The notes under the pieces: model-generated
The model's database searches: none
Told to the model about the DNA's origin: nothing
Seen by the model: the letters and a program-made list of their open reading frames with translations, nothing else
Part shown: positions 3,235 through 36,194 of the stretch, in pieces
How the letters are laid out: every line of letters begins with the position of its first letter
Numbering within the stretch: position 1 is the first letter of the stretch
DNA from: a bacterium
GTDB taxonomy: Bacteria; Patescibacteriota; Patescibacteriia; UBA10025
NCBI GenBank assembly: GCA_021815445.1
Contig: JAKAGM010000002.1
Span: forward strand, 31,373 to 95,372
Length of the DNA: 64,000 nt
Direction: 5' to 3'
Program-made: the position numbers and the translations under genes

Positions 3235-3286
3235 TTCATCCACTCCCGCCGCTGCCCCGGTGGTTGATCATCAGATGAGCAAACCT

Positions 3287-3320
3287 CGCCCAAACCAAGC
3301 TTTGGGCGGGGAGTTTTTTA
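3287..3320 (+). terminator. Intrinsic terminator after the hypothetical gene
   Basis: Hairpin cgcccaaaccaagctttgggcg followed by gggagtttttta. Confidence 0.5.
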
Positions 3321-3340
3321 TTCTCAAGGACAAGGTTAAC

Positions 3341-3370
3341 CCGAGCGCAGGCAGAGACGCCTGCGCTCGG
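3341..3370. repeat. Palindromic repeat CCGAGCGCAGGC-agagac-GCCTGCGCTCGG, 12-bp perfect stem
   Basis: Perfect inverted repeat. It is the prototype of the family whose other copies are at 24660, 28755, 29937 and 40477. Confidence 0.6.
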
Positions 3371-3453
3371 GATAGTCTTTTTCGATCGCGGGCACGGCGG
3401 CCCGGGCGCGGATTCCTTTGTAAATATCCATATTTTTTGGTACAATAACCGCA

Positions 3454-4527
3454 ATGAACATCCTTGATGACATGAAAAAAATTATACGGCTGGACCGGCA
3501 GAATATGCGCGGGTCTATTGACGCACTCCCTGACCAGATACGGCATGCATGGGCGGAGAGCAGGAAGATAAAATTTCCTGCCCGCTATGCTCAGGCAAAA
3601 AAAGTTGTCGTCGCAGGCATGGGCGGCTCCATCATCGGCGCTCATCTTTTAGAATCAGTTTTTGCCGATGAGTTCAAAGTTCCGTTTGTACGGCTCGGCG
3701 ACTATCGTTTACCAGCTTGGGTGGGTCGCGATACGCTGGTGATTCTCTCCAGCTATTCGGGCACTACAGAGGAGGTTCTCGCGATGGGCAAAGATGCGCT
3801 CGCACGCGGGTGCATGGTGGCGGGTCTATCCGCGGGCGGGACTCTTGCGCGGATGATGAAGGCCCGTCGGTTGCTGTGGTATCACATTGCTCCGACATTC
3901 AACCCTTCTAACCAACCCAGAATGGCTACCGGCTACATGGTTTTTGGGCTGCTTGGTTTATTGTCGCGGCTCCGATTCGTGCACCTCGGCAGCCGGGATG
4001 TAGAGCATATAGTTGCCACATTGCAAGCAAAGCACCACCATCTCGGAATCAAAAAACCGGTACGTAATAACATCGCAAAAACGATTGCCGCGAGACTTGT
4101 CGGCAAATATATCCTCTTTGTTTCTGCGGAACACTTAATCGGCAACGGGCATATCGCCGCAAACCAAATTAATGAGAATGCAAAACAGTTTGCCGCGTAC
4201 TTTTCCCTGCCGGAACTCAATCATCATCTCCTGGAAGCGCTCCGGTTTCCGCGTGAAAATCGGCGCCTGCTCACTGCCGTCTGCTTCCAATCACAGCGTT
4301 ATCACCCGCGGAACCAGCGCCGAGTAAATGCCACTGTCCGCATCCTCCAGCAACAGGGTATCCGCGCGATCATGGTCCCTGTGCGGGGGAAATCCAAACT
4401 TGATGAGGCATTACAAACTGTCCAGCTCGGTGCGTATTCCGGTTACTATCTTGCCATCCTGAACAGGCTAAACCCGGCGCCTATTACCTGGGTCGATGCG
4501 TTTAAGCGCATCATGGCCAGGGCGTAA
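3454..4527 (+). CDS. Bifunctional phosphoglucose/phosphomannose isomerase (SIS domain, archaeal-type PGI/PMI)
   Basis: VVVAGMGGSIIGAHLL and SSYSGTTEE motifs. The ~350-aa length fits the PGI/PMI family. Confidence 0.65.
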   Translation: MNILDDMKKIIRLDRQNMRGSIDALPDQIRHAWAESRKIKFPARYAQAKKVVVAGMGGSIIGAHLLESVFADEFKVPFVRLGDYRLPAWVGRDTLVILSSYSGTTEEVLAMGKDALARGCMVAGLSAGGTLARMMKARRLLWYHIAPTFNPSNQPRMATGYMVFGLLGLLSRLRFVHLGSRDVEHIVATLQAKHHHLGIKKPVRNNIAKTIAARLVGKYILFVSAEHLIGNGHIAANQINENAKQFAAYFSLPELNHHLLEALRFPRENRRLLTAVCFQSQRYHPRNQRRVNATVRILQQQGIRAIMVPVRGKSKLDEALQTVQLGAYSGYYLAILNRLNPAPITWVDAFKRIMARA

Positions 4528-4570: not shown

Positions 4571-6187
4571 ATGACAACGTCTCACGCCACCCTGTCATGG
4601 TTTCAGACTCACCGCCGTGTTATCGCGGCGCTTTGTCTATTTGCCTTCGCATTTGTATTTTTCCTGTGGCTACAGGATGACCCGACATTTGCGGACCCCG
4701 ACTCGTTTTATCACGCCAAAATGGCCCTGCTCATCCGCGATCAGGGAATCGTCAAAGATTTTCCCTGGCTCCAGGCCACCGTCCTCGCGAAATCTTACAC
4801 TGATCAGCACCTTTTATACCATATTGCCCTGATCCCGTTTGTAACTTTTTTCCAGCCCATTGTCGGGATTAAAATAGCTACTGTTTTGCTTGCCGCCGCC
4901 GTTGTTGAAATGGTGTATCTGCTGCTCTCTGCATTACGAGTCCGGTTTGCCGTGCTGTATGCGTTTATATTGCTTGCAATCGGTCCGTTTATCTTCCGCA
5001 TGAGCTTGGCGAAAGCCCCGAGTGTGTCCATGCTTTTTCTGCTCAGCGGAATATTGCTGATGTTCAAACGCAGACGGTGGTGGCTCTTTATTCTTTCGTT
5101 CCTCTACGTCTGGGCGTACGGCGGCTTTACCCTGTTGCTCGTCGCGGCGGCGATATGGAGCGGAATAGGGTTTTTTGAACAATTCATGCAATCTCCCGCC
5201 CGGATTGGGCGACGTCCCCTGGGTCTCATGATGCACTCGTTCGTGCGCAATGAACATGTCCGTACGGTTTTTTCCGTCTTTTCCGGGATTATCCTGGGCG
5301 TAGTCATCAATCCATATTTTCCGCACAACCTGTTTTTTTACTGGAGCCAACTTGTGCAGATTGGCATTATTAACTACCACTCGGTCATCGGCGTGGGAAA
5401 CGAATGGTATCCTTACCCGTTCATGGACCTGATCTCCAGCACGATATTTCTCACCGTCATCGTGATAATCGCGCTCGTGCTTTTTTCCGTCTTTCTCAGG
5501 TCGCAGCGCCGGCGCTCGTGGATGTTCTTTATCATGGCGGCGTTCTTTTTTCTCCTGACGTTAAAATCAAAACGGTATGTCGAATATTACGTGCCGTTTG
5601 GAATGCTTTTTGGCGCTACGGCTCTGGACACTTCACTCGGACGCATCGATTTCCGGCACTTTTTACGCGATGTCATGGGATGGTATTTTAAACATAAAGT
5701 ATTTGCCATGATTCTTATCGTTTATTTCCTCGTGACCCTTCCAGCCATTGCGGTGCGCGACACTGTCAGTATTAAAGGAGATCTTCGCGGAGGATCTTCT
5801 GTCACGAAATTTGCAGCGGCGAGCAGCTGGCTCGAGAACAATACCCCCGAGCATGCCGTCGTTTTTCATTCAAGCTGGGACGAATTTCCGCTGCTTTTTT
5901 ACCATAATACGCACAATTACTATATTGTCGGCCTCGACCCGACGTTTATGTATACGTACAACAAAGACCTCTATCAAAAAAATGTCGATATTACGACAGG
6001 CGTCGGTGTCCCCAAGATTCAGCAGGTACTCCAAAAAGATTTCAAGGCAAATTATGTTTTTATCGAAAAACACCACGGAGGCATGCACTCGCTGATCAGC
6101 GCCCTCCCCGACGCGAAACTTGTCTATGAGGATAGTGAAGCGTGGATCTATTATTTGCCGCCCGTGCAGAATGATTCCTCTTCCTAA
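4571..6187 (+). CDS. Polytopic membrane protein, GT-C-fold glycosyltransferase-like (G1)
   Basis: More than 10 predicted TM helices. The first extracytoplasmic loop has FADPDSFYHAKMA, a DxD-YH motif that resembles the acidic EL1 motif of GT-C enzymes. There is no WWDYG, so it is not an STT3/AglB. Start chosen at MTTSHATLSW to avoid overlapping the PGI/PMI gene. Confidence 0.4.
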   Translation: MTTSHATLSWFQTHRRVIAALCLFAFAFVFFLWLQDDPTFADPDSFYHAKMALLIRDQGIVKDFPWLQATVLAKSYTDQHLLYHIALIPFVTFFQPIVGIKIATVLLAAAVVEMVYLLLSALRVRFAVLYAFILLAIGPFIFRMSLAKAPSVSMLFLLSGILLMFKRRRWWLFILSFLYVWAYGGFTLLLVAAAIWSGIGFFEQFMQSPARIGRRPLGLMMHSFVRNEHVRTVFSVFSGIILGVVINPYFPHNLFFYWSQLVQIGIINYHSVIGVGNEWYPYPFMDLISSTIFLTVIVIIALVLFSVFLRSQRRRSWMFFIMAAFFFLLTLKSKRYVEYYVPFGMLFGATALDTSLGRIDFRHFLRDVMGWYFKHKVFAMILIVYFLVTLPAIAVRDTVSIKGDLRGGSSVTKFAAASSWLENNTPEHAVVFHSSWDEFPLLFYHNTHNYYIVGLDPTFMYTYNKDLYQKNVDITTGVGVPKIQQVLQKDFKANYVFIEKHHGGMHSLISALPDAKLVYEDSEAWIYYLPPVQNDSSS

Positions 6188-7397
6188 ATATTACCTTGCC
6201 GCAGGACTAGTCATGGCCGCTCTCGCAATAGTTTGGGGCGGTTTCGTCATGGCTCAACCAATCTACGATATCGGTGCAAAGTCTACACCTTTGGTACGCG
6301 ACCAACAGGAGACAATCAGTGTCTATTTTAATCGCGCCGAGTTCATCCCTCGTCATGAGTTTCCCTATTCCCATGTTCTGGAAGAATACCCTGTGCTTGG
6401 CGTGCTTTATATCAGTCTCCCTCGTCTGTTTACCCAGGATCCCGGCGGGTCCATGCAGATATTTTCATTCATGAGCCTGCTGGTCCTGTGCGCGCTGGTC
6501 GCAGTGACTTCCGCACTCCTGAGATTTTTTAAGCGATCTCCGTGGTATCTAACACTTTTTCTCCTGCCTGCAACGCTGTATTTTGCTTTTAACCGTTTTG
6601 ATATTCTCATTGCGCTTATTGTCCAGATAAGTCTGTACATGCTGGTTCGGCGACGGTATGCCTGGGCAATTTTCCTCCTTGCCATAAGTTTTTTTGTGAA
6701 ATGGTACGGCATTCTTTTCGTGCCCGTATATTTGGTATACATGAAAAATACTGTTGCCCCGGAGGTATGGCGAAAGTCATTTCGAAGGATGCTGCGGATC
6801 ATAGGGATAACACTGGTGGTTCCCACAGTCGTCTTATTCATCTTTGCGGGAGTTAACAGCATTCTTCCCTACGCGTTTCACGCCTCACGCGGTATCGAGT
6901 ATGGCAATGTTTTAGTTCCTTTTCTCGAGAGAATGTATCGTGTCCTTCCGCCTTCTCTCGTCCGTTTCCTGATGAAAGCGATTCCGCAGCTTCTTTTTGC
7001 CGGTCAGATTATTCTCCCGCTTGTTATGGCATTAAATCCTAGCGGTTTTATACAAAGAATCAAATCGCACCGCGATGTAGTGCGGTGGATGGTTATTATT
7101 GTCCTTCTTTTCCTCCTTTTCGGGAAATTTTATTCGCCGCAATTTATCCTTTGGTTATTGCCCCTCCTTATTCTTCTCGTACGGCGGTTTTCTGACATCT
7201 TGTTGTTTATTACACTTGACCTCATACACTACCTGTCGTTTCCGCTCATCTATATTCAGTCAGGGTATAATTCCGACGCTTACGCGTTAATGGCGTTTAT
7301 TCGCACGCTCGTATACTGCATCGTGCTGTTCAAAGCACTCCCCGCTACCCGCGCATGGTTTCCCGCAACATCATTTGTAGATACCCAAGAAGGATGA
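6171..7397 (+). CDS. Polytopic membrane protein, putative GT-C/DUF2029-like glycosyltransferase (G2)
   Basis: About 11 hydrophobic segments and no soluble domain. Start uncertain; MIPLPK overlaps the end of G1. Confidence 0.35.
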   Translation: MIPLPKYYLAAGLVMAALAIVWGGFVMAQPIYDIGAKSTPLVRDQQETISVYFNRAEFIPRHEFPYSHVLEEYPVLGVLYISLPRLFTQDPGGSMQIFSFMSLLVLCALVAVTSALLRFFKRSPWYLTLFLLPATLYFAFNRFDILIALIVQISLYMLVRRRYAWAIFLLAISFFVKWYGILFVPVYLVYMKNTVAPEVWRKSFRRMLRIIGITLVVPTVVLFIFAGVNSILPYAFHASRGIEYGNVLVPFLERMYRVLPPSLVRFLMKAIPQLLFAGQIILPLVMALNPSGFIQRIKSHRDVVRWMVIIVLLFLLFGKFYSPQFILWLLPLLILLVRRFSDILLFITLDLIHYLSFPLIYIQSGYNSDAYALMAFIRTLVYCIVLFKALPATRAWFPATSFVDTQEG

Positions 7398-8143
7398 GAC
7401 ACGGAAAAAAAATTATCGCCGTACTGCCCGCGTACAATGCCGAAAAAACGCTGCGCCAGACGCTTCGTGACATTCCTCGCGACGTGGTCGACGATATTAT
7501 ACTCGTTGATGACGCGAGCGCCGACGGTACGGCTTCCCTGTCCCGCTCACTCGGGCTCACGACTATAGTGCATCCGCGCAATCTCGGCTATGGGGGAAAC
7601 CAAAAAACTTGCTACACGGCGGCACTTCATGCCGGGGCGGATGTCGTCATCATGATCCACCCTGACCACCAGTACGATCCGACGCTTGTGCCTGCGATGG
7701 TCGAACCTCTGGCGGCAGGGGAAGCCGACGCAGTTTTCGGTTCGCGGATGCTTGTACCCGGCGGGGCGCTTTCCGGCGGCATGCCACAGTGGAAGTACAT
7801 TGCGAACGCCTTTTTAACCCGGGCGGCCAATGTGTGCATAGGAACGCATCTGAGCGAATACCACTCGGGCTTTCGCGCGTATTCGCGCGCAGTTTTAGAG
7901 CGCGTCCCGTATTCGCTGAATTCGAATAATTTTGTTTTTGATACTGAGATTATCGCCCAGCTCGCTGTATACAACTTTCGTATAAAAGAGATACCTATCC
8001 CCACCAAATATTTTAAAGACGCGTCTACAGTGGGTTTTTGGAAAGGGGTGCAGTACGGTCTCAATATTTTCGGCGTCCTTATGCGCTATCAGCTTCACCG
8101 GCTGGGTATCATCCGGACAAAGCAATTCAGTAAAACCGGTTAA
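7394..8143 (+). CDS. GT2 family polyprenyl-phosphate sugar synthase (Dpm1/ArnC/GtrB-like)
   Basis: IIAVLPAYNAEKTL...ILVDDASADGT and the DxD region VIMIHPDHQYDP, over ~250 aa. Typical of dolichyl/undecaprenyl-phosphate mannosyl- or glucosyltransferases. Confidence 0.7.
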   Translation: MRHGKKIIAVLPAYNAEKTLRQTLRDIPRDVVDDIILVDDASADGTASLSRSLGLTTIVHPRNLGYGGNQKTCYTAALHAGADVVIMIHPDHQYDPTLVPAMVEPLAAGEADAVFGSRMLVPGGALSGGMPQWKYIANAFLTRAANVCIGTHLSEYHSGFRAYSRAVLERVPYSLNSNNFVFDTEIIAQLAVYNFRIKEIPIPTKYFKDASTVGFWKGVQYGLNIFGVLMRYQLHRLGIIRTKQFSKTG

Positions 8144-8210: not shown

Positions 8211-9869
8211 ATGGATGCCAATCTCGAACCATATTCCCTGACCTTAAAGTCACTTTGGAAATCTATCGGCAGAGGTGAATGGATATTTATCTCATGCATT
8301 ATATTAATTTCCGTAGCTGTTACGACTTTTCCCTATCTCTATGGGGCCGTGACAGCTCCATCTGGCATGACATACACAGGGATCCATAATCTCACGCCCG
8401 GAGACACGAATGCCTACCTCTCACTCATTGCGTCCGTCAAAGAGGGGACAAATACGTTTGTTAACCTCTTTACCAGCGAGCACCAGTCCGTCGTCGACGT
8501 GAACCCGTTATGGTGGAGTGTCGGAATGTTCGCCAAAATATTTCATCTTTCACCGCTTGCCAGTTTCCACGCAACACGAATCATCCTGATAGGCGTATTA
8601 GTTGTCGTGGCGTATCTTTTTCTCACCCTATGCTTCTCGTCGCGCGCTCGGCGCAAAGTAGCGCTCGTGGTGATTTGCTTTGCATCGGGGGTAGGTTTAT
8701 TCGTGGGTCCATTTGTCTACAACGAAGCTCACCGGATTAATTACCCGGTTGATGCATGGGTGCCTGAAAGCATCCCTTTTTTAATCATGTACAATTCACC
8801 GCACTTCATAGCGTCCCTAATACTGATAGTCATCTGTATCGCACTTATGTACATGGCATTTGTCACGGAAAAGTTCGTCTATTGCATCGCTGCCGGCGTA
8901 GCAGGATTTCTCCTCACCTGGTTCCACCCTTTCGATACGCCCACGGTAGTATGCGTGGTCGGAGTATTTTTGCTTTATCTGATGGTCAAAAGGAAAAAAG
9001 TTTACCGAAGATGGCTCTTGCAGTATTCTCTATATATTCTTCTGATAGCGCCCGCCGCGCTGTATCTTTTTTTCCTTATATATAAAGATCCCGTCATGGC
9101 ATTGTGGCAACAGCAAAATATCCTCCTTTCACCTTCAATCTGGATGTACCTTTCGGCGTTCGCGCTTCTTCTCCCGTTCGTTGTGTATGCGCTCATTCGC
9201 AATGACCTCAAAAGATCCGGAATCACGCGACTTCTGATAGTATGGATCGCCGTCTCAGCTATTCTCTTATACGTTCCGGTGAATTTCCAGCGGAGGATGG
9301 TCGAAGGATTATTCATCCCGGTCGCCATTTTGGCTGCAGATGGAATCGTGACGCTCTGGGAACGGTTAAAGATTTCGGCTGTACAGCATGGGTTACAATC
9401 ACTGCTCCTTTTCGGACTGGTGGTATTCTTGCCGTTGACGAATTTACAGATAATTGGTCAGGATGTAAGCCAATATGCGACAATGAAGGATTTTCCATTT
9501 TATCTTACGTCAGGCGAGATGGACACTCTCTCTTGGATAAAGAACGCTACTGATACCCAGTCAATTTTTCTCTCGAGCAGGTATTTCGGTAATTTTATTC
9601 CCGCGTACGCGATCCGCCGGGTATATATAGGGCATGGGCCGCAGACAATAGATCTCGAGCGTAAGATTCCTGAGGTTTACAATTTCTACACAGGAGCATG
9701 GGACGATGCCGCCCGCGAGCGTTTCTTAAAGGAAAAAGGCATTGCCTACGTGGTCATCGGACCCCGTGAAGAAGCATACGGAAGCACTGATCTCGCGAAT
9801 AAACCATTTTTGAAACTTGTACATTCGACATCGGATACTCGTGTGTATGCGGTTATCGCTCATCGCTAG
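8211..9869 (+). CDS. Polytopic membrane protein, GT-C-like (G3), tandem paralog of G4
   Basis: More than 10 TM helices. An N-terminal loop carries GDTNAYLSL...NLFTSEHQS. The C-terminus IPAYAIRRVYIGHGPQT is paralogous to 9903..11456. Confidence 0.4.
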   Translation: MDANLEPYSLTLKSLWKSIGRGEWIFISCIILISVAVTTFPYLYGAVTAPSGMTYTGIHNLTPGDTNAYLSLIASVKEGTNTFVNLFTSEHQSVVDVNPLWWSVGMFAKIFHLSPLASFHATRIILIGVLVVVAYLFLTLCFSSRARRKVALVVICFASGVGLFVGPFVYNEAHRINYPVDAWVPESIPFLIMYNSPHFIASLILIVICIALMYMAFVTEKFVYCIAAGVAGFLLTWFHPFDTPTVVCVVGVFLLYLMVKRKKVYRRWLLQYSLYILLIAPAALYLFFLIYKDPVMALWQQQNILLSPSIWMYLSAFALLLPFVVYALIRNDLKRSGITRLLIVWIAVSAILLYVPVNFQRRMVEGLFIPVAILAADGIVTLWERLKISAVQHGLQSLLLFGLVVFLPLTNLQIIGQDVSQYATMKDFPFYLTSGEMDTLSWIKNATDTQSIFLSSRYFGNFIPAYAIRRVYIGHGPQTIDLERKIPEVYNFYTGAWDDAARERFLKEKGIAYVVIGPREEAYGSTDLANKPFLKLVHSTSDTRVYAVIAHR

Positions 9870-9902
9870 CCGTATGCGTCTCCGTATCCATGGCATGGTG
9901 CT

Positions 9903-11456
9903 ATGATTTTTTCTCCGGCGGACAAAAAGTTTTTGACAGTTGTTACTGCAATTATTGTCATTATTGCGGCGATACCTTTTATCTACGCAGTGATGTCGAC
10001 ACCCAACGGCATGGCCTATAGCGGGAGGCATGCGCAAAACAGCGGAGATTACGCGGTGTATTTCTCCCAGATGGAGCAGGCTCGGCAGGGGCATATGCTA
10101 TTTTTAAATTTGTTTACCAGCGAGAGCCATGCGCGTACCATCTTTGATCCCGTCTGGCTCGTACTTGGTTGGATATCGCGGGTTACCGGATTATCTATTC
10201 CTCTCACCTTTCATGTAGCCCGGCTCATAGCAATCCCGCTATTTATATCGGTCGCCGCGCGCTTTGTGTGGACTATGCTTGATGATGCCCGTGAGCGGCG
10301 AGTCGCATTGCTCATGATCAGTTTCGGGGGCGGTATCACCGGCTATGCGAAGACGACCGATGCTTCAGCGTTTCATGCCATGCAGTTTTCCCCCCATGTG
10401 GTGCTCTCCCTCACTTTTTTGCTGGCAATATTTCTACTTATGTATCGCAGCTTTCATCTGCACATTATCCGATATGCGGTATACGCGGGATTCCTCGGGC
10501 TTGTATTATTTTTTTTCCACCCGTATCACATTTCGACAACCTATGGAATACTCGGTGCATACGCCATGGTAATGATCTTCCTTCGGAGATCACCAGCGTG
10601 GAGTATCATCAGCTCCTTCGCTGTCTATGTCGCCCTCTCAGTTCCGGCTGTCCTGTATTATTGGTTGTTCTTTAAACTTTCTCCTATCGGCAGCGGATGG
10701 TTGGCACAAAGCGATTCACTTATGCACGCAAGACCCCCGTGGGAAATTCTTTGGTCATTTGCCCCATTAGTTCTACTTGCGTTGATCGGGTACAAAGTCC
10801 TTTTAAACGAGCGACGTGAACAGGCGATATTCATGGTAACCTGGATCGTCATCGCTCTTACACTGATGTGGACTCCATGGTTTTTTCGCATGCGCACGAT
10901 TGGTGGAATGACCATTCCTCTGAGTATAGCGTCTGCGGCGGGTATCGTGTGGCTTCTGCGAATTGTGGCGCTCAGGAAGTCCGCTATGGCGTGGTCCATG
11001 GTGTTGATTATCGCCATTATCGGTACCACTATGCCCGTGCACGGTATGACGTTTATTCACAACATAGCTGTTTACGCTCAGCAGGTCGATTATGCGTATA
11101 TCTCCGATGAACTTGTCGATGTGATACGGGTATACAGACAGCAGGCGACTGATACCGACGTACTTCTCGCTTCTCCGTATACGAGCAATATTATTCCGGC
11201 ATTAACGGGTCGAAAAGTGTATATAGGCCACGGCATTCAAACCCTTTCTTCACATCAAAAAGTGAAGGACATTAACGCATTTTTCTCCCGGGCGGCGAAT
11301 GATGATCCTACATATACAGAACTTCGTTCATTGGGGATTACTTTTCTTCTGATTACCCCAAAGGAGCAGGAACTCGGGATGCTGCCACTCGATAATGCGC
11401 CGTTTCTGCAGATAGCTGCGCGAGAAGGGCCTTATTCTCTTTATCGTGTGCGCTGA
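9903..11456 (+). CDS. Polytopic membrane protein, GT-C-like (G4), tandem paralog of G3
   Basis: Shares SGDYAVYFS...NLFTSESHA and IPALTGRKVYIGHGIQT with G3. Confidence 0.4.
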   Translation: MIFSPADKKFLTVVTAIIVIIAAIPFIYAVMSTPNGMAYSGRHAQNSGDYAVYFSQMEQARQGHMLFLNLFTSESHARTIFDPVWLVLGWISRVTGLSIPLTFHVARLIAIPLFISVAARFVWTMLDDARERRVALLMISFGGGITGYAKTTDASAFHAMQFSPHVVLSLTFLLAIFLLMYRSFHLHIIRYAVYAGFLGLVLFFFHPYHISTTYGILGAYAMVMIFLRRSPAWSIISSFAVYVALSVPAVLYYWLFFKLSPIGSGWLAQSDSLMHARPPWEILWSFAPLVLLALIGYKVLLNERREQAIFMVTWIVIALTLMWTPWFFRMRTIGGMTIPLSIASAAGIVWLLRIVALRKSAMAWSMVLIIAIIGTTMPVHGMTFIHNIAVYAQQVDYAYISDELVDVIRVYRQQATDTDVLLASPYTSNIIPALTGRKVYIGHGIQTLSSHQKVKDINAFFSRAANDDPTYTELRSLGITFLLITPKEQELGMLPLDNAPFLQIAAREGPYSLYRVR

Positions 11457-11691
11457 TTGCCAGCGGACGGTTACGAAACTGTCAGCACCCCTCATTTTTT
11501 ATTGCTTCGTTCCGTAAGAAGTCAAATGCTCCCATTATTATGTACTGCGGGCTTCTTGTCCACCTTGTGTCACCCCGGTGAACCCATATCTCAAACCACC
11601 GGGAATGTTTTTTGCGAACATATCCCCTGTGCGCAGCTATAGTTACTACTCCCATGATATATGGTGCATGCCCGTGGAGTCCTCTTCCGGA

Positions 11692-13632
11692 TTAAAAGAG
11701 TCTCGCAGCATCCCCTGCCGGTTTTTCTTTATCGATATGCATGCTTGCCGAGCGTAATCCGTCGAGTGTCATGTAGCCCGTGACGTCAACAAGCTGGATG
11801 TCGGCATGTTCAATATTCGCTCCCGCGGGCTTCGCAAACCAGTAGTTCATCTGCACATTCTGTCCTGGCATCCACGTTGATGCCGGGTACAACCCGTAGG
11901 CGAGCGGATAGAGCTTGTTATTCACGACGTTCCCATGGTCATCAGTAAGCCTGATAAGCATCTGGTAATTTTTTTGTATCTGTCCCGTGGCTTGCATCAC
12001 CAGAGTAATGCCGAGCTCATCACTTCCCTGGGGCAGAGATTGCCAGCCAAGGAGTTTCGCGTTCGGCCCGAGCTCTTGAGGTGCTCCCTGCAGGTCGGTG
12101 GGTGGAACGCTTATTATGCGCACGAGCGGATTCACCTCTGTCGTTCGGCGGGTATAAAGAACTACTGTATCAAATATCTGGGTCGGCACGAATCCCCGGT
12201 CCAAAAGCTCACGGATATGCTCCGGTCCGGATGTTTTAGCTCGAGCATATGGCGCTATGGAGAACGATTGGAGGTGATAGATGAGAAAATCGTTGTAATC
12301 AACCAGTACTGTGTCTGCATCCTGAGGGATAGTATACGGGGCCAGAGAATATTGCCGTGTTCCTTCGAATGCATAGTGGAGCGAATACACCTTGTCCCGT
12401 CCGGAAAGGTCAGTAAGGGGCGCAAAACTCGCGACCACCGATGCATCAGACGGTACAGCCGCAATCGCCTGTGCCAGCGCATGCTGGTTTTGGTCACGCG
12501 TGGTGGATGTTGAAATCAGCGGAAGGAGGGGTCCGAACGTGAGGGCGCCATAGATGGTCGCTGTCGTCATGAGTATGAGACTGAGATTGAGCATATGCGG
12601 CACTTGTCTGAATATTTTCGGCGGCTTTTCCTTCAATTTCTGCAGACCCATGATGGTGGCCATGAATATAAAGGGTATAAGGAGGGCGCTGTAATGAGTT
12701 TTTAGCACGAGCTCTGTAAAGCCGGTAAGGAAAAGCTGCAAGAAAATCAGAAGCGATGGAATCAATAGACGGGGCCTTAACAACGGCAGACCAACAAAAG
12801 GCAGGAGCAATGCAATAGCCATGACAATCGTGTTAAATGACATGAGTTTGTTGAATAGCGAAGGGATGCTGGAGAGCAAAGAAACTAAAGATGAATGTGC
12901 GCTTGCCTGCAGTGTCGGGTAGTATGCAAAATATTTGTACGCGCCGTCAGGGTTCATGTGAGAAATGAACGCAAGCGACCCGGCAAACCATGCAGTGCCG
13001 AGAAGCAAAGGAATTATCACCCACTTCTTTGTTCGACGATCGCACAGGGCGAGCACGCCGAACATGAATACCACGAGTGCGACGTCTTCGCGTACAAGAA
13101 AGCTTATTATGAGAAAGATGAGGAATGGGGTGAACTTGTTTTCGAGATACATCGCGACTGCCCAGGCGAGAAATAGTATCCCGAACGGCAGAATATGAAA
13201 TTCAAATGCGTTGGTATTTTGAACAAACGGGTTTGCTAAATATAACAACGCAATGCCAGCAGCGATCCCTGGCCCGAGCTTTGATTTGGCAATCCGGTAT
13301 ATCGGCCACGCAGCGAGCGCGATGCCGACAGTTTGCATCAGGAGAAGCGTGAAGGGCGTTTTGCTTATCATATAGAGCGGGAGCAGAAGAATGATCAACG
13401 GTTCAAAATGGTCTCCGAGGTAGCTCTGCGGATGTATAGTCATGCCGAAGAGATCACCGTGTGAGGAATGCCAGAACACCTGATTATAAATCGCCAGGTC
13501 AATAGCATTGTACTTATGGAGCGTAAGTTTCACAAAACCCAGGAAAGCGAATACCGCTATGTAGACAACCATGCCTCCTACGACAAATAGCGCACCTCTC
13601 CGTTCCATTATTTTTCTCAGCCAATATGCCAT
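11692..13632 (-). CDS. DUF2079-like large integral membrane protein, putative GT-C
   Basis: AIDLAIYNQVFWHSSHGDLF...HFEPLI resembles the DUF2079 N-terminal motif. 646 aa, polytopic. Confidence 0.4.
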   Translation of the reverse strand: MAYWLRKIMERRGALFVVGGMVVYIAVFAFLGFVKLTLHKYNAIDLAIYNQVFWHSSHGDLFGMTIHPQSYLGDHFEPLIILLLPLYMISKTPFTLLLMQTVGIALAAWPIYRIAKSKLGPGIAAGIALLYLANPFVQNTNAFEFHILPFGILFLAWAVAMYLENKFTPFLIFLIISFLVREDVALVVFMFGVLALCDRRTKKWVIIPLLLGTAWFAGSLAFISHMNPDGAYKYFAYYPTLQASAHSSLVSLLSSIPSLFNKLMSFNTIVMAIALLLPFVGLPLLRPRLLIPSLLIFLQLFLTGFTELVLKTHYSALLIPFIFMATIMGLQKLKEKPPKIFRQVPHMLNLSLILMTTATIYGALTFGPLLPLISTSTTRDQNQHALAQAIAAVPSDASVVASFAPLTDLSGRDKVYSLHYAFEGTRQYSLAPYTIPQDADTVLVDYNDFLIYHLQSFSIAPYARAKTSGPEHIRELLDRGFVPTQIFDTVVLYTRRTTEVNPLVRIISVPPTDLQGAPQELGPNAKLLGWQSLPQGSDELGITLVMQATGQIQKNYQMLIRLTDDHGNVVNNKLYPLAYGLYPASTWMPGQNVQMNYWFAKPAGANIEHADIQLVDVTGYMTLDGLRSASMHIDKEKPAGDAARLF

Positions 13633-19781: not shown

Positions 19782-20618
19782 TTAGAATACGAGTAAAATA
19801 ATCCCCCCAGCTAGAACAGCAAATAGGAGTATTTTGACGAGAGTATTTTTTTCCTTAAAGTAGGCTTTGCCGGAGAGAACGGACCAGAACACCGCAGAAG
19901 AGCGTTTTGCCGCTATGATAACTGAAGCGGGAGCCAAACCGTAGGCAAAGCTTTCAATAACCGCATCAATACCTTGTGTTGATGTTTGGGCCATGTAAAT
20001 GCGCTTCTTTAAAAAAACAAACGGATTTTCTTTTGCGAAAATATACGCACCAATCGAGAAAACTATAGACAACATTCCACAAGTTATCAGCTGTTCTGCC
20101 ACTACGGAATTAAAATGGCTAATGTTGTATTTATATAGCGAGGTGGTTATTGCCGCATTTACTGTGCAAAAAATGGTATATCCTATCCCCCTTTTGTTTA
20201 TAGAGTGGCTGGTAAAAATGAAAAGCAGAGAAAAAATGATTACCCCGATGCCAATAAGCTGGGTCAAATGCAGTTTGTACCCCAAGGTAATATCAATAAT
20301 CAGTACCAAAACTATCGTGCCGGTGCGTATAAAACCGTAGGTGCTGCGATCAGATCGCACCACCGCCATCATTGAAGTATGCAATTGCAGGATTTCTAAA
20401 ACAGCTCTGACTAAAAAAGTTGGCAACGACTGAACTGAAAAGACGAAGCTATTTTCCTTCACTATGGCGATTACCAAAAAGAATAGTGAAGCTCCTAGCA
20501 CGCTCAAAAAACCCATAGTGAAAACACTCTCCTCTTGCATTGCAACCTTCCACTTTCCAATTGAGGAAGAAATTTCCTCAAAAAGCGTGGCTAACGAAGT
20601 GAGAAAAACGCCTAGCAT
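19782..20618 (-). CDS. Hypothetical polytopic membrane protein (about 9-10 TM, possibly DMT/EamA-like)
   Basis: Hydrophobic throughout. It lies between csaA and a csaA 5' remnant. Confidence 0.4.
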   Translation of the reverse strand: MLGVFLTSLATLFEEISSSIGKWKVAMQEESVFTMGFLSVLGASLFFLVIAIVKENSFVFSVQSLPTFLVRAVLEILQLHTSMMAVVRSDRSTYGFIRTGTIVLVLIIDITLGYKLHLTQLIGIGVIIFSLLFIFTSHSINKRGIGYTIFCTVNAAITTSLYKYNISHFNSVVAEQLITCGMLSIVFSIGAYIFAKENPFVFLKKRIYMAQTSTQGIDAVIESFAYGLAPASVIIAAKRSSAVFWSVLSGKAYFKEKNTLVKILLFAVLAGGIILLVF

Positions 20619-20622
20619 AGTT

Positions 20623-20723
20623 TACTCGGTTTCCGCGCCTTAGGAAAAAGTTCGGCGCGAACGATTGTTCCCGCGCGTATGCCGGATTTTTCAAATTTAT
20701 CCCGGGTGATTGTTGAAATATTC
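20623..20723 (-). pseudogene. Remnant of a second csaA 5' end (first ~30 codons only)
   Basis: About 80% nucleotide identity to 19640-19735. It would encode [28 protein letters not shown] and then stops. Confidence 0.5.
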
Positions 20724-20784
20724 ATGTGGTTATAAATTTTTGGTAAATATACTGCAATAGTGAGTTGATATTGTGGTGTTTGGC

Positions 20785-21549
20785 TTAGCGATCCGGTAGT
20801 TTATCCCAAAGCAACATAAAAAAGTACTGAAACATTTGTGCCATTAAACCATCCTCTATTAACGCTATTTTGACAGCTTGGTCTTTGGAAGCAAGCGCAA
20901 CGACATTCCCGAAAAGCAGTATTCCTGCATCGATAGTAAAGTTCTTTTCTAAAAAGCGAAACTGACGAAAATTGCCGATCTTTTCTCCAAATCTTTTCTT
21001 TTCCACTATTCTCCGGTCAGTAATGGCATATGAGGTTGTAGCTTGCTTAAGGCGGCGAAGCGTAAGTCGACGATATAACTCCTCCTCGCCCACAAGGGAT
21101 AGTAACATGTCGATGGAGCCGAACCAGTACATGTTTGTTTTGGTTTCAATGATCTTGTCGATCATCAAACGCACTCCCGCGATGCCTTCGTAGTAATGCA
21201 CTTGTGTGGTAGCATTTTTTTTCTTCATCATCGCCATTAACTGGGGGATAAGACTGGCGATTACTTTCTCCTGCTGAGAAAGTTTTTCACTTTCATCAGC
21301 AAGGTATTCTCGGAAAGCCTGTTGTGGCTGTTCTGCAACGATGTATTTTCTTTTGCCCTTGATTTTATAACCGAGGACGCCTTTTTCCTTTAATTTTTCC
21401 AGATAGAAATACACCGTGGCGCGTTTAATACCAGTAATCCTAGCCAGGCTTGCGGGAGTATTTGATTCTTTTTCTAGACAACTGAGATATATCGCTGATT
21501 CTTTGTCGTCAAAACCGAGTTTTTTCAATAGGTTTTCCATAAGTGCCAT
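20785..21549 (-). CDS. TrmB family transcriptional regulator
   Basis: N-terminal wHTH: LLKKLGFDDKESAIYLSCLEKESNTPASLARITGIKRATVYFYLEKLKEKGVL. Confidence 0.65.
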   Translation of the reverse strand: MALMENLLKKLGFDDKESAIYLSCLEKESNTPASLARITGIKRATVYFYLEKLKEKGVLGYKIKGKRKYIVAEQPQQAFREYLADESEKLSQQEKVIASLIPQLMAMMKKKNATTQVHYYEGIAGVRLMIDKIIETKTNMYWFGSIDMLLSLVGEEELYRRLTLRRLKQATTSYAITDRRIVEKKRFGEKIGNFRQFRFLEKNFTIDAGILLFGNVVALASKDQAVKIALIEDGLMAQMFQYFFMLLWDKLPDR

Positions 21550-21758
21550 TTTTATTCCAAAAAGTGACGATAGTCATTGACATCATCACTGTAGCAGAAT
21601 CGTCAATAAATGCAAGTATGCATCGACCTCTAGTTCTTTTTTTGTACTGTATTGTCAGTGATTCGTTGACGATAATCGTATGTTGGATGAACATATATAA
21701 ATACTAAATAAACCGTATATTCAAAACCGTTCTTTTCACTCGAAGAGGAGCTCACAAA

Positions 21759-22178
21759 ATGGAAAAAGTGAATCTGCAAGGTACACCCCGGCCACATTAT
21801 CTGCAAGAGGCAGAGATCGATGAAGGGGGGCACCATCTCGTGGGGGTAGTGCTTTTCCCAAGTGAAGACCCCAGTGTCGGTGATCGTCGGGATCACGTCA
21901 ACGTCAGTCATCACCTCTTTGCCGCTTGGAACGCCGCGCATTTTCTTGCCAGAAATTTGGTAGGGAGTGCAAGACTCTGGGCGAGGGAAGTGTCAGCCAA
22001 ACTTCACGAAGTCACACTGCCGGATGTGCCGATCAGGATTGAAGCCGATTTGACCATCGACCGAGAACGCGGTCCACGGAGATGGGGTCACTACCAAGTC
22101 AGCTTCTGGGACGAAAGTGGGCAGAAGCTGCTTGCAGAGCTCAACGTGCGATTCGTCGGAGAAATCATTCAACAGTGA
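21759..22178 (+). CDS. Hypothetical protein
   Basis: GAGGAG ribosome-binding site upstream and coding-like composition. No family recognised. Confidence 0.35.
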   Translation: MEKVNLQGTPRPHYLQEAEIDEGGHHLVGVVLFPSEDPSVGDRRDHVNVSHHLFAAWNAAHFLARNLVGSARLWAREVSAKLHEVTLPDVPIRIEADLTIDRERGPRRWGHYQVSFWDESGQKLLAELNVRFVGEIIQQ

Positions 22179-33410: not shown

Positions 33411-34622
33411 TCATGAAGTTTCTCGGGCGCCTAATTGGACGGCATCGCCGCGCCGTTCTACGCCGGTTCTCTCGATATAGTTCACTGCTTTATCGGAAAA
33501 CGCAGTCGGATAGGAATCTGCTTGGTATTCCAACTTTAATCTTGCTCTGTCGCTCGTCTCATCAAGCTCAAAGATGCCGTAGTACACGTTGTTTTCCTTT
33601 GTTGTGATTTTCAACCTGTGATTGGGATAATCTACTTCGAATGTACCGCTGATGTCCCCGGAAAACTTGTCGCCGCCCGATTCATCCTCTGCGGAAAGCA
33701 CTATATTCCCCGTGTAGTACGGCGTGCTTGCTTCGATAAAAGTGATAATGTCAATCGGCGGCCGGAGTTCCCACTTCGTGGTGAGAAGCCATGTGCCGGT
33801 TATTTTTCCTTCGTTGCCCGAATGAAGCAGAGGAGTATTCGTTAGGTAGGGCTGATAGGCGTTGAAAGCGGGGATTACTTGGCCGTCTTGCGTCGGTTCC
33901 AAATAATGTTTCTTCCACCAAGCGACCACTTTTTCCTTATCGCTGGTTTTCAAGTAATCGTACGGCGAAACTGAAGTGCCGTTACCCTTATCAATCCCGT
34001 CATCGCGCAACGAGTCTACTAAGGTAAATTCGCCGCTCGATATCGTCGGCTGGAAACTTTTGCCCGTGCCGATAGTATCTCCGATTTTGACAACTTCGCC
34101 GACTTTCACCACAGGTTGATCAATCTCCATATGGATACCGGAGAGGTTATGGCCATAGTCTACGCTGATATGGTATTCATCGCCTGACAGCGCGACGCTA
34201 GTGATAGTCCCGTCCCCCCAACTTCTAGCCGGTGTACCTTTTTTCAGTTCAATCCAGACGTGGTCCAGTCCTTCGATGTGGCCTCCTGCCGCCAATCCGT
34301 AGCCGACCATATACGTGTTGGTGCCCCCGAAGACCTCATCTTCAGTGTAAGGGAATGCCAGTCTCGTCGGCGAGCCGCAGTCGGGCACCGTCCACACGAT
34401 GTTGTCGAACATCGGATCTGGTCGGGCTTGGGTGCCGCAAGGTAATGTCCCACTGTTTGCATTCTTGGCAGTTTGCACATCAGCCTGTGCGCTATTTTGT
34501 ACGTTTTCTTGGGAGTTATCTCGGGGCTTATTCAACTTACTTTTTATATTTCCGTAGCTAGCTATGCCGGCTATGCCGAGGAGTGCAATGATGGCTATAG
34601 GAATGAGTACTTTTTTAGACAT
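33411..34622 (-). CDS. Secreted hypothetical protein (N-terminal TM/signal), possibly a degenerate M23/LytM-like domain
   Basis: Signal anchor. A GHIEGLDH...GHNLSGIHME region is weakly M23-like. Confidence 0.3.
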   Translation of the reverse strand: MSKKVLIPIAIIALLGIAGIASYGNIKSKLNKPRDNSQENVQNSAQADVQTAKNANSGTLPCGTQARPDPMFDNIVWTVPDCGSPTRLAFPYTEDEVFGGTNTYMVGYGLAAGGHIEGLDHVWIELKKGTPARSWGDGTITSVALSGDEYHISVDYGHNLSGIHMEIDQPVVKVGEVVKIGDTIGTGKSFQPTISSGEFTLVDSLRDDGIDKGNGTSVSPYDYLKTSDKEKVVAWWKKHYLEPTQDGQVIPAFNAYQPYLTNTPLLHSGNEGKITGTWLLTTKWELRPPIDIITFIEASTPYYTGNIVLSAEDESGGDKFSGDISGTFEVDYPNHRLKITTKENNVYYGIFELDETSDRARLKLEYQADSYPTAFSDKAVNYIERTGVERRGDAVQLGARETS

Positions 34623-34735
34623 AGATTTTTGTTAGCTTTTCGGCGTGAAATTTTTGATTGAGGCAGGAGAGTTGGGTTATGAGTTTTTTGAACGTCATCT
34701 TATTGCCCTTACTCGTTATTAACAAGATCAGAAAT

Positions 34736-35704
34736 TTAATTTTCCACTTGCGTAGTAATTAATAACCCGATGAGCCGATGCACCTCAATAAAAGATTCTT
34801 TGATCACTTTTTTATCAGTTATCGGTGTGCCACCTTCATGGACAATACCGTTTCTCCATCTAATTATATTGTTGATTTTTTTGTAGTCTACTTTTTTAAA
34901 CTTCTCCAGGGACCTGATAAATAAATTGACTTTATAGTAGACGCCCGCTTTAAGTATATTACTCTTATCTCTTTGTTCGAGCATATAATTTTGAGAAGTA
35001 TATTTTAAAATGTATTTGCTGATCGCAATCTCTAGCGCCGTAATTATTTCGATAATTGCTAATCGGTAATTGTGTTTAATTAAATACTCAATTGAATTAT
35101 TTAATATAATAATTTCTGAAAGTAACCTTTGATTCGATATTATGGACTTAATAACATATTGAAATCGCTGTGCGTCAATTTCTTCAATATCTTTGTAGGA
35201 TGAGCTAAACAGCGCAATGATTGAGCGATAGTCTTTAATTTTTTCCCATTTCCCATCTTTTTTTATTTCTACTTGCCATAAATTAATGTAACTAGAATAA
35301 TCTCTCGAGTCTTCATTTATTTCATGTAAGTTTAAAATATGGCCAATATTTCTGAAATGAAGTATTAAAAGATTTATTATTTTTAGAGTTCTGCGATAGA
35401 TTTTTCTCGTATCTTTGTATAGATTGTGTTTAGACTCTAGGTCATAGTAAACAATTAAGTAATCTACTTTTATGATAAATCGTTCATCTTCAGACTTAAC
35501 AGGGCCAAGGCGCTCCATGTTTAATTTGACTTTACAGTTTATTTTTCTTTCTAATTGAAAAGTAAACTGAGTTTGGAAAGTTGATAGTTCTGTACTTTTT
35601 ACTGGAATGGCAATATTTACTGGGTACTTAAACTTAAAGTGATATCTCATAGTACAAATTGAATCTTTACTACTTGTTTTTTTAATACTATTATCACTAC
35701 CCAC
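34736..35704 (-). CDS. AT-rich hypothetical protein with C-terminal Rx4H (HEPN-like) motif; candidate Abi/defense protein
   Basis: Gene GC is far below the flanking DNA. The C-terminal NIIRWRNGIVHEGG carries R-x4-H in a predicted helical region. About 320 aa, similar in size to Abi_2/AbiD-like proteins. Confidence 0.35.
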   Translation of the reverse strand: MGSDNSIKKTSSKDSICTMRYHFKFKYPVNIAIPVKSTELSTFQTQFTFQLERKINCKVKLNMERLGPVKSEDERFIIKVDYLIVYYDLESKHNLYKDTRKIYRRTLKIINLLILHFRNIGHILNLHEINEDSRDYSSYINLWQVEIKKDGKWEKIKDYRSIIALFSSSYKDIEEIDAQRFQYVIKSIISNQRLLSEIIILNNSIEYLIKHNYRLAIIEIITALEIAISKYILKYTSQNYMLEQRDKSNILKAGVYYKVNLFIRSLEKFKKVDYKKINNIIRWRNGIVHEGGTPITDKKVIKESFIEVHRLIGLLITTQVEN

Positions 35705-35777
35705 AGCCCCACTGACGGCACGAGGTAGGCGAGGTCAAACCAGCCGACTTGGTTTTATTGAGGGTTCAGTGACATTC

Positions 35778-36194
35778 CTATGTTTCATGCAGCTCGTAAG
35801 ATGTTTTTATCCACTGCAAGAGCTTAGCATCGACATCCTTTTTGCTCTTCAGGTCAAAGTAGTAGAGGTAGCGATTAGGGGACATGCGGATCATTTTATA
35901 TAGTTTCTTGGTTTTAATTTTACCATCAGTGCGGAAATCAATCCGGATTCTGTCCCGGAGCGCCCATACTCCGCCAAACGTGTATGTGCTGACCAGATGG
36001 ATACAGCAGGGCAGGGATTCTATTTTCACCGGTCCGATTTTTTTCGTGATTTCCTGCTTCAGGTGTCCAAACAGTCCCTTGGCGTATTCCTTATTCTTGA
36101 AATGGTTTGCGAGCGGGTAGCTGACGCAGGAGTGCGCCTGGTTTTTCTTCTCAAATTGCCGTTTGCACTTCGGGCAAGTCCAAAGTTTTTGCAT
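35778..36194 (-). CDS. Hypothetical protein with N-terminal zinc-finger-like CPKCx10HSC
   Basis: MQKLWTCPKCKRQFEKKNQAHSC. Adjacent to the AT-rich gene. Confidence 0.35.
   Translation of the reverse strand: MQKLWTCPKCKRQFEKKNQAHSCVSYPLANHFKNKEYAKGLFGHLKQEITKKIGPVKIESLPCCIHLVSTYTFGGVWALRDRIRIDFRTDGKIKTKKLYKMIRMSPNRYLYYFDLKSKKDVDAKLLQWIKTSYELHET

Follow-up and report, generated by a model that had tools for sequence, protein, structure and literature searches.

G3 (8211..9869) and G4 (9903..11456) are neighbouring genes in the window, the 64,000-nucleotide stretch of patescibacterial DNA that was analysed (coordinates are on the + strand unless noted otherwise). Their products, of 552 and 517 amino acids respectively, are probably GT-C class A glycosyltransferases that act on a lipid-linked sugar. 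This assignment draws on the observed paralogy, fold, topology, residue conservation and gene neighbourhood of the two proteins. Both are members of a large family that is unstudied and lacks a Pfam or NCBIfam model. Run against representatives of 50%-identity clusters, a profile of this family picks out 11,055 proteins, and no paper on it was found in the literature on GT-C enzymes and oligosaccharyltransferases of Patescibacteria (CPR), on DUF2079 and DUF6541, or on new GT-C families.

The two open reading frames lie where they were originally called, on the + strand and separated by 33 nt, and the same gene calls are present in the NCBI MAG record that holds the sequence. G3 and G4 are 28% identical over 514 columns (BLASTP E-value: 7e-68), which is far beyond chance. 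The original prediction that they are paralogs is upheld: the similarity is full-length, and each protein carries both the GD...Y...NLFTSE and the YIGHGxQT motif on which that prediction was based. A bootstrap tree gives 0.5% support to a sister grouping of G3 and G4 and so rules out a recent in-place duplication; G4 is an old paralog of G3 and belongs to a small separate clade of orthologs that are 38-74% identical to it. A promoter and terminator scan inside the operon gave no excess over shuffled sequence, and no Rfam or tRNA hit lay close to either gene.

Neither G3 nor G4 has a match in Pfam, NCBIfam or the PDB sequences, and the same searches with 41 relatives returned no meaningful family. 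The sole signals were a borderline DUF6541 match (relative P0046) and nanobody noise with the profile; none of these databases gave a sequence-level link to a characterised GT family. Comparison of the family with DUF2079 and with the neighbouring protein G2 using hhalign showed no relationship. Some family members are fused to YfhO-like GT-C domains. G3 and G4 each have 11 hydrophobic TM helices, so that their description as polytopic is correct. This number lies within the 7-13 helices of the GT-C class A core, the core can be superposed on solved GT-C enzymes, and acidic residues (D65 and E90) are found in the outer loop after TM1. The fold and these outer residues, together with the lack of a Pfam, NCBIfam or PDB sequence match, bear out the earlier suggestion of an unnamed GT-C-like family. 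Pfam and CAZy curators can take the fold, topology, candidate active site and conserved gene island described here as a ready-made definition of a very large family without a studied member.

The N-terminus of both proteins is cytoplasmic, and the motif loop and C-terminal domain are extracytoplasmic, as judged from the 11 TM helices, the positive-inside rule (Lys and Arg are concentrated in the predicted cytoplasmic loops) and N-terminal fusions. In three relatives (P0042, P0148 and P0157), a GT2 domain is fused immediately before TM1. GT2 domains require cytoplasmic nucleotide sugars. The motif loop is thus placed outside the cell, as originally proposed, and does not face the cytoplasm. The first extracytoplasmic loop of G3 (residues 47-114; 8349..8552) includes GDTNAYLSLIASVKEGTNTFVNLFTSE (8400..8480), a motif of the GD...Y...NLFTSE type. 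The first loop helix (DSSP helix 65-77) begins with D65 (codon 8403..8405), and E90 (8478..8480) is within NLFTSE. The invariant D44 of G1, a distant STT3/AglB-like paralog, likewise opens the first EL1 helix. The corresponding GD...Y...NLFTSE motif of G4, taken from its translation, is GDYAVYFSQMEQARQGHMLFLNLFTSE (10044..10124). Within the G4 clade, D49 (10047..10049) is invariant and E74 (10122..10124) is kept in seven of eight members; the clade alignment shows strong purifying selection on the motif residues, the same ones as in G3.

Conservation was counted over 224 full-length relatives. In the first outer loop, the acidic residues are conserved, which was the check originally suggested: D65 is present in 223/223 and E90 in 93%. 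Position 123 is Arg or Lys in 97%, position 479 is Thr or Ser in 100% (R123 and T479 in G3), and H475 is retained in 96%. Conservation on this scale indicates that the motifs are features of the family and not a chance likeness within the G3/G4 pair. The second outer loop of G3 has the motif PVDAWVPE (8745..8768), in which 91% of relatives keep D181 and 95% have Glu or Asp at the position of E186. G4 has a 17-residue deletion in this loop relative to G3, and its shortened motif, TTDAS (10353..10367), keeps only D153, which is aligned with E186 and is invariant in the G4 clade. The difference between the second loops suggests that G3 and G4 have different acceptors or linkages. A short basic outer loop of G3, FQRRMVEG (9285..9308; R361, R362 and G366), is a candidate phosphate-binding site; R362 (R, K or H) is kept in 98% and G366 in 96% of relatives. 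This loop aligns with KSRRYVEYY of G1, and the G4 equivalent of FQRRM is FFRMR (10881..10895), invariant in the G4 clade. The loop was also compared with the TIXE/SVSE-type Glu of STT3 EL5; its own E365 is kept in only 53% of the relatives. D65, E90, R123, D181, E186, R362 and H475 are putative active-site-type residues; D65, E90, D181/E186, R123, R361/R362 and H475 are suitable targets for mutation.

The outer C-terminal domain is approximately 135 residues long and folds like the core (CC) domain of STT3/AglB. In G3, this alpha/beta domain comprises residues 415-552 (9453..9866). The segment at the WWDYG position is SSRYFGNFIPAY (9573..9608), followed by VYIGHGPQT (9621..9647). The G4 counterparts, SPYTSNIIPAL and VYIGHGIQT, together occupy 11172..11243, with VYIGHGIQT at 11217..11243. 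WWDYG itself is replaced by SRYFG in G3 and by SPYTS in G4, and the G(N)(F/W)I part alone is retained. This degeneration of the WWDYG position within a domain of the STT3 type is relevant to how enzymes resembling oligosaccharyltransferases come to use different acceptors.

G3 and G4 are part of a gene island that recurs across different Patescibacteria (approximately 22 of 29 loci), with the order PGI, G1, GT87-like, Dpm1-like GT2, G3, sometimes G4, and then DUF2079, beyond which are three pilin-like genes, SBP and GalU. In the window, the STT3/AglB-like GT-C protein G1 is encoded at 4571..6187. G2 (6171..7397), a 408-residue membrane protein, has a weak PIG-M match (0.12) and a phmmer link (2.6e-7) to a gene of another locus (L003) annotated MptA_B_family, and is probably a GT87/MptA_B-like GT-C. 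The gene directly upstream of G3 (7394..8143) encodes a GT2 protein (PF00535, 2e-21) resembling polyprenyl-phosphate-sugar synthases. Its NCBIfam matches (AglJ, PpgS and Dol-P-hexose transferase) are all under the curated cut-offs, its best PDB matches are the Pyrococcus Dol-P-Man synthase 5mlz and ArnC, and its domain is of the type fused to P0042, P0148 and P0157. Only 14 of the 29 loci have a GT2 gene within 10 kb, so the family is not linked to a monophosphate donor everywhere. The gene for the DUF2079 membrane protein (11692..13632, - strand; PF09852, 6.9e-54) is convergent with G4 and is found downstream in 23 of the 26 loci having downstream sequence. The same islands also carry GT87/MptA_B and PMT_2 genes. 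GalU and PGI are housekeeping enzymes whose presence may only mirror conserved gene order.

Among characterised enzymes, STT3/AglB/PglB (GT66; PDB 3waj, 6s7t, 5ogl and 3vu0) share the C-terminal core (CC) domain fold with G3 and G4. One or both could be true oligosaccharyltransferases of this type, transferring a preassembled glycan en bloc from polyprenyl-diphosphate to protein in N- or O-linkage, with the pilin-like proteins encoded nearby as one conceivable target. This is unlikely. G3 and G4 differ from these enzymes in that they lack the WWD of WWDYG, have 11 TM helices rather than 13, and match neither the STT3 models (PF02516; Pfam and NCBIfam) nor any PDB sequence at full length. Their genomic partner is a synthase of monophosphate sugars instead of a pathway for lipid-linked oligosaccharides. 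A related reading, also unlikely, is that G1, G3 and G4 form a Patescibacteria-wide offshoot of the STT3/AglB lineage that glycosylates surface proteins from polyprenyl-phosphate sugars. Such an offshoot would have kept the oligosaccharyltransferase core and C-terminal domain and dropped sequon recognition (WWDYG), and its targets might include the always-adjacent T4SS-pilin-like proteins; if true, it would be an undescribed bacterial protein-glycosylation system in ultrasmall episymbiotic bacteria. A further comparison is with ArnT/PMT_2/RgtA-D-like enzymes (GT83 and GT39; PDB 5f15 and 9e61), of which ArnT does not have the STT3-type C-terminal motif arrangement of G3 and G4. The PF13231 and PF02366 models of current Pfam match none of G3, G4, the 41 relatives and an ortholog named in UniRef, whose name they therefore do not reproduce.

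AftA (galactan 5-O-arabinofuranosyltransferase, GT85; PDB 8if8) is similar in fold alone (10% identity), and G3 and G4 have no AftA_N or AftA_C Pfam match and no PDB sequence match to it. AftA is from an actinobacterium, whereas G3 and G4 are from a patescibacterium in which an arabinose-donor pathway was not identified. One or both proteins might instead be non-catalytic GT-C-fold subunits, like PIG-U/GAB1 of the GPI transamidase, with G4, for example, as a pseudo-enzyme partner. We consider this very unlikely. Polytopic proteins without a sequence-family assignment could also be transporters or flippases and not enzymes, but the fold evidence disfavours this highly improbable reading, which was rejected.

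By analogy to characterised GT-C enzymes, from which we infer catalysis, donor class and acceptor, the most likely function of G3 and G4 is to glycosylate a glycan or protein of the cell surface with sugar from a polyprenyl-phosphate donor. Pointers to this donor class are the adjoining Dpm1/ArnC-like GT2, the GT2 and YfhO-like fusions, and the GalU, GT87/MptA_B and PMT_2 genes. The pathway would run as follows. A cytoplasmic Dpm1/GtrB-like GT2 would transfer a hexose from a nucleotide sugar to polyprenyl phosphate, and the lipid-linked sugar would then be flipped across the membrane. The conserved Arg residues of G3 and G4 would hold its phosphate. At the outer face, the EL1 Asp, either alone or together with a metal bound by the acidic residues, would activate a hydroxyl group of the acceptor. 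The GT-C enzymes of the island (G1, G2, G3, G4 and DUF2079) probably build a surface glycopolymer or glycoconjugate step by step, and this would be the acceptor. No new mechanism is demonstrated by this analysis. Patescibacteria, whose genomes are tiny, rely on contact with host cells, and to our knowledge little is known about their surface-glycan synthesis.

The GT-C definition and the three-component paradigm used here are those of PMC11127046. Such extracytoplasmic systems include GtrA/GtrB/Gtr*, CsbB/GtcA/YfhO and GT136 (PMC11127046, PMC5836110). The G3/G4 island likewise has a Dpm1/GtrB-like GT2 adjoining (7394..8143) or fused to (P0042, P0148 and P0157) an outer-acting GT-C, and some relatives are YfhO-fused. 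It differs in having four to seven GT-C genes instead of one, which suggests stepwise assembly, as of mycobacterial lipomannan/arabinan, rather than a single decoration. It also differs in that no dedicated lipid-sugar flippase gene is recognised nearby: annotated Pfam families within 10 kb include none of the GtrA, SMR or MATE type. A 212-residue protein encoded upstream was ruled out as a flippase because it is soluble. The only flippase candidate is a weak EamA-like protein encoded 8 kb away.

G3 (8211..9869, + strand) and G4 (9903..11456, + strand, 33 nt from G3) are membrane protein ORFs of 552 and 517 aa, respectively, and the same two genes are called in the NCBI MAG GCA_027341205.1 (contig DAIENG010000002.1). 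They are full-length paralogs (BLASTP: 28% identity over 514 columns, E-value: 7e-68). Each carries both a first outer loop motif and a C-terminal motif (GDTNAYLSLIASVKEGTNTFVNLFTSE and VYIGHGPQT in G3, GDYAVYFSQMEQARQGHMLFLNLFTSE and VYIGHGIQT in G4), which bears out the original prediction of clear paralogs. Neither protein matches a Pfam-A or NCBIfam model at E ≤ 1, or a PDB chain by sequence. A profile of 41 relatives retrieved no membrane enzyme from the PDB sequences, and a Pfam search of these relatives gave no convincing match, with one of the 41 lying exactly at the threshold for DUF6541 (over 135 residues). Source databases name the relatives 'hypothetical protein', with one UniRef exception: an ortholog 46% identical to G3 is auto-named 'Glycosyltransferase RgtA/B/C/D-like domain-containing protein'. 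A PMT_2 match for this ortholog was not reproduced with current Pfam. The family is large: searching 1.84 billion representative proteins with its profile gave 11,055 at E ≤ 1e-3 and 4,632 at E ≤ 1e-30. No paper on it was found in the literature searched.

From the 41-sequence alignment, AlphaFold2 modelled G3 with confidence (mean pLDDT 93.5, pTM 0.94). When this model was compared with the PDB using Foldseek, the first 27 places were held only by GT-C glycosyltransferases. STT3, AglB and PglB (E-values: 3e-9 to 2e-5, TM-scores: 0.45-0.60) are followed by DPY19, AftA, ArnT, AftD and EmbB, and those matches that span over 400 residues are to class A enzymes bearing an outer domain at the C-terminus. 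The figures listed in the G3 fold comparison are AglB 19.5, ALG12 19.3, STT3B 18.6, Pmt4 17.8, ArnT 17.6 and PglB 16.0. G3 and G4 almost certainly have the GT-C fold, and the suggestion of a GT-C-like family without a name holds. They form an uncharacterised sequence family within a well-known enzyme superfamily; given their gene context, neither the fold nor the likely chemistry would surprise a specialist.

Both the model and hydropathy point to 11 transmembrane helices. Lys and Arg are abundant in the short predicted cytoplasmic loops (such as SSRARRK, KRKKVYRR and RNDLKRS) and few in the short outer loops. Three relatives (P0042, P0148 and P0157) have a GT2 domain fused directly ahead of TM1. 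Because GT2 enzymes require cytoplasmic nucleotide sugars, the N-terminus is placed inside, and therefore the first loop (47-114, GD…NLFTSE) and the C-terminal domain (415-552, VYIGHGxQT) lie outside; the motif loop does not face the cytoplasm. Two other relatives, P0177 and P0200 (about 1350-1390 aa), have a YfhO-like GT-C N-terminal half fused to a G3-family C-terminal half, giving two GT-C enzymes per polypeptide.

Conservation was counted over 224 full-length family members (G3 numbering). The acidic residues of the first outer loop are conserved across relatives as proposed, D65 in 223/223 and E90 in 93%. Also conserved are R123 (R/K, 97%), D181 (91%), E186 (E/D, 95%), W345 (about 100%), R362 (R/K/H, 98%), H475 (96%) and T479 (T/S, 100%). 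In the model, D65 opens the first helix of the outer loop, which would correspond to the place of the catalytic Asp in class A GT-C enzymes.

Four genes lie upstream of G3 on the same strand, with overlaps or short gaps. These encode a PGI/PMI-like isomerase (3454..4527, +), the STT3/AglB-like GT-C protein G1 (4571..6187, +), the 408-aa polytopic protein G2 (6171..7397, +; weak PIG-M match, E-value: 0.12) and a GT2 protein (7394..8143, +). G1 is a distant, more STT3-like paralog of the G3 family (profile-profile comparison: 97.3% probability, E-value: 2.6e-11, 391 columns from TM2 to the C-terminus). G2 is linked to a gene of locus L003 annotated MptA_B_family (phmmer, 2.6e-7) and is probably a GT87-like class B GT-C protein. 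The best matches of the GT2 protein are archaeal AglJ, PpgS, Dol-P-hexose transferase, Pyrococcus Dol-P-Man synthase and ArnC, which places it in the class loading sugar onto polyprenyl phosphate. On the opposite strand downstream are a 646-aa DUF2079 membrane protein (11692..13632, -; convergent with G4), three small T4SS_pilin-like proteins (PF18895; 13726..15529, -), a solute-binding protein and GalU, the last above the curated cut-off. The DUF2079 protein weakly matches the NCBIfam 'cell surface glycopolymer formation protein' family (E-value: 8e-4), and hhalign detects no relationship between it and the G3 family.

With HMMs built here, 29 loci from different genomes were compared. The order YebC< PGI> G1> G2> [GT2>] [further GT-C] G3> [G4>] <DUF2079 <pilins <SBP <GalU is found in about 22/29, with PMT_2 and GT87/MptA_B as extra GT-C genes inserted in some islands. 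G1 is upstream in 18 loci, G2 is conserved as a neighbour of both G1 and G3, lying between them, in 17, and a GT2 gene occurs within 10 kb in 14. Of the 26 loci having downstream sequence, 23 have DUF2079 after the family gene. The pilin-like genes (three, but six in L009) always come after DUF2079, downstream of the GT-C island, and are followed by the solute-binding protein and GalU; this order is also seen in L002, L003, L005, L006, L009 and L011-L028, and is conserved across many Patescibacteria.

The C-terminal domain alone matches three solved domains. A domain-only profile, for which the best glycosyltransferase matches are 3vu0 (E-value: 0.056) and human STT3A (E-value: 0.5), places the family motif LSxxxxGNFIPAY against LSWWDYGNWILY of AglB. 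WWD is a signature of oligosaccharyltransferases; at its position G3 has SRY and G4 has SPY, the family as a whole being variable, and the subsequent G-N-(F/W)-I is retained. The domain is STT3-like with the WWD lost. Oligosaccharyltransferases (GT66) have 13 helices, whereas G3 and G4 have 11 and no STT3 model match, and so fall outside GT66. They look like distant kin of that family, and it is quite unlikely that they are true oligosaccharyltransferases. A further reading, in which an STT3-derived system would glycosylate the neighbouring pilin-like proteins, is unlikely.

G3 and G4 are probably polyprenyl-phosphate-sugar-dependent GT-C glycosyltransferases acting on the external side of the membrane, and would belong to a multi-enzyme island that assembles a surface glycopolymer or glycoconjugate. 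Such a scheme matches the synthase-flippase-GT-C logic known from bacteria (PMC11127046). No lipid-sugar flippase was recognised near G3/G4. A non-catalytic subunit sharing the GT-C fold is very unlikely, and a transporter, the alternative named in the original prediction, is highly improbable: the first transporter match in Foldseek has an E-value of 0.018, a probability of 0.21 and a TM-score of 0.09.

G4 orthologs (74%, 47%, 46%, 44%, 43%, 42% and 38% identity) lie directly downstream of a G3 ortholog in the two ortholog loci examined, as in the window (L001, L005, L006). Their clade lacks 17 residues of the second outer loop, the D181 position among them, while D49 (equivalent to D65), R107, H165, HPYHI, FFRMR and GHGxQT are invariant, as is D153, aligned with E186. 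From this pattern, G4 resembles a functional enzyme whose acceptor or donor pocket has changed, and not a copy in decay. A bootstrapped NJ tree supports the G4 clade at 100% and the G3 clade at 96.5%, with the two as sisters in 0.5% of replicates; on average, G4 nevertheless lies nearer the G3 clade than the remaining branches. Either the split is therefore old or G4 is fast-evolving. Of the proposed duplication and divergence in place, the tandem paralogy stands, and a recent in-place duplication finds no support. In L020 the tandem position of G4 is taken by another family member (11602..13314, a paralog of neither clade), and a GT87/MptA_B gene is added after G4 in L005 (9554..10858) and L006 (9548..10828). 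This variable content suggests repeated GT-C gene gain at the slot after G3.

Two strong GC-rich hairpins with T-runs (3284..3371, +) closely precede a TG-extended promoter-like site (3418..3446) and the PGI gene; this arrangement fits an operon beginning at PGI and running through G4. The scan marks as terminator-like a small hairpin with a trailing T-run (CATGGCATGGTGCTATG ATTTTTT; 9889..9905, +) that overlaps the G4 start codon; it may be due to chance, because the region has no significant excess of such sites. The only nearby lipid-sugar flippase candidate is an EamA-like (DMT superfamily) 278-aa membrane protein (19782..20618, -; weak Pfam match, 1e-4), which nothing ties to the island. 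Five loci (L013, L016, L018, L019 and L025) come from TPA MAG records titled 'uncultured Gammaproteobacteria bacterium', yet have the same island, of Patescibacteria type, together with G3 orthologs; such titles probably reflect placeholder or erroneous taxonomy. In the window, the 2-kb bins 20001..22000 and 34001..36000 have G+C contents of 0.417 and 0.393, clearly below the roughly 0.49-0.52 elsewhere.
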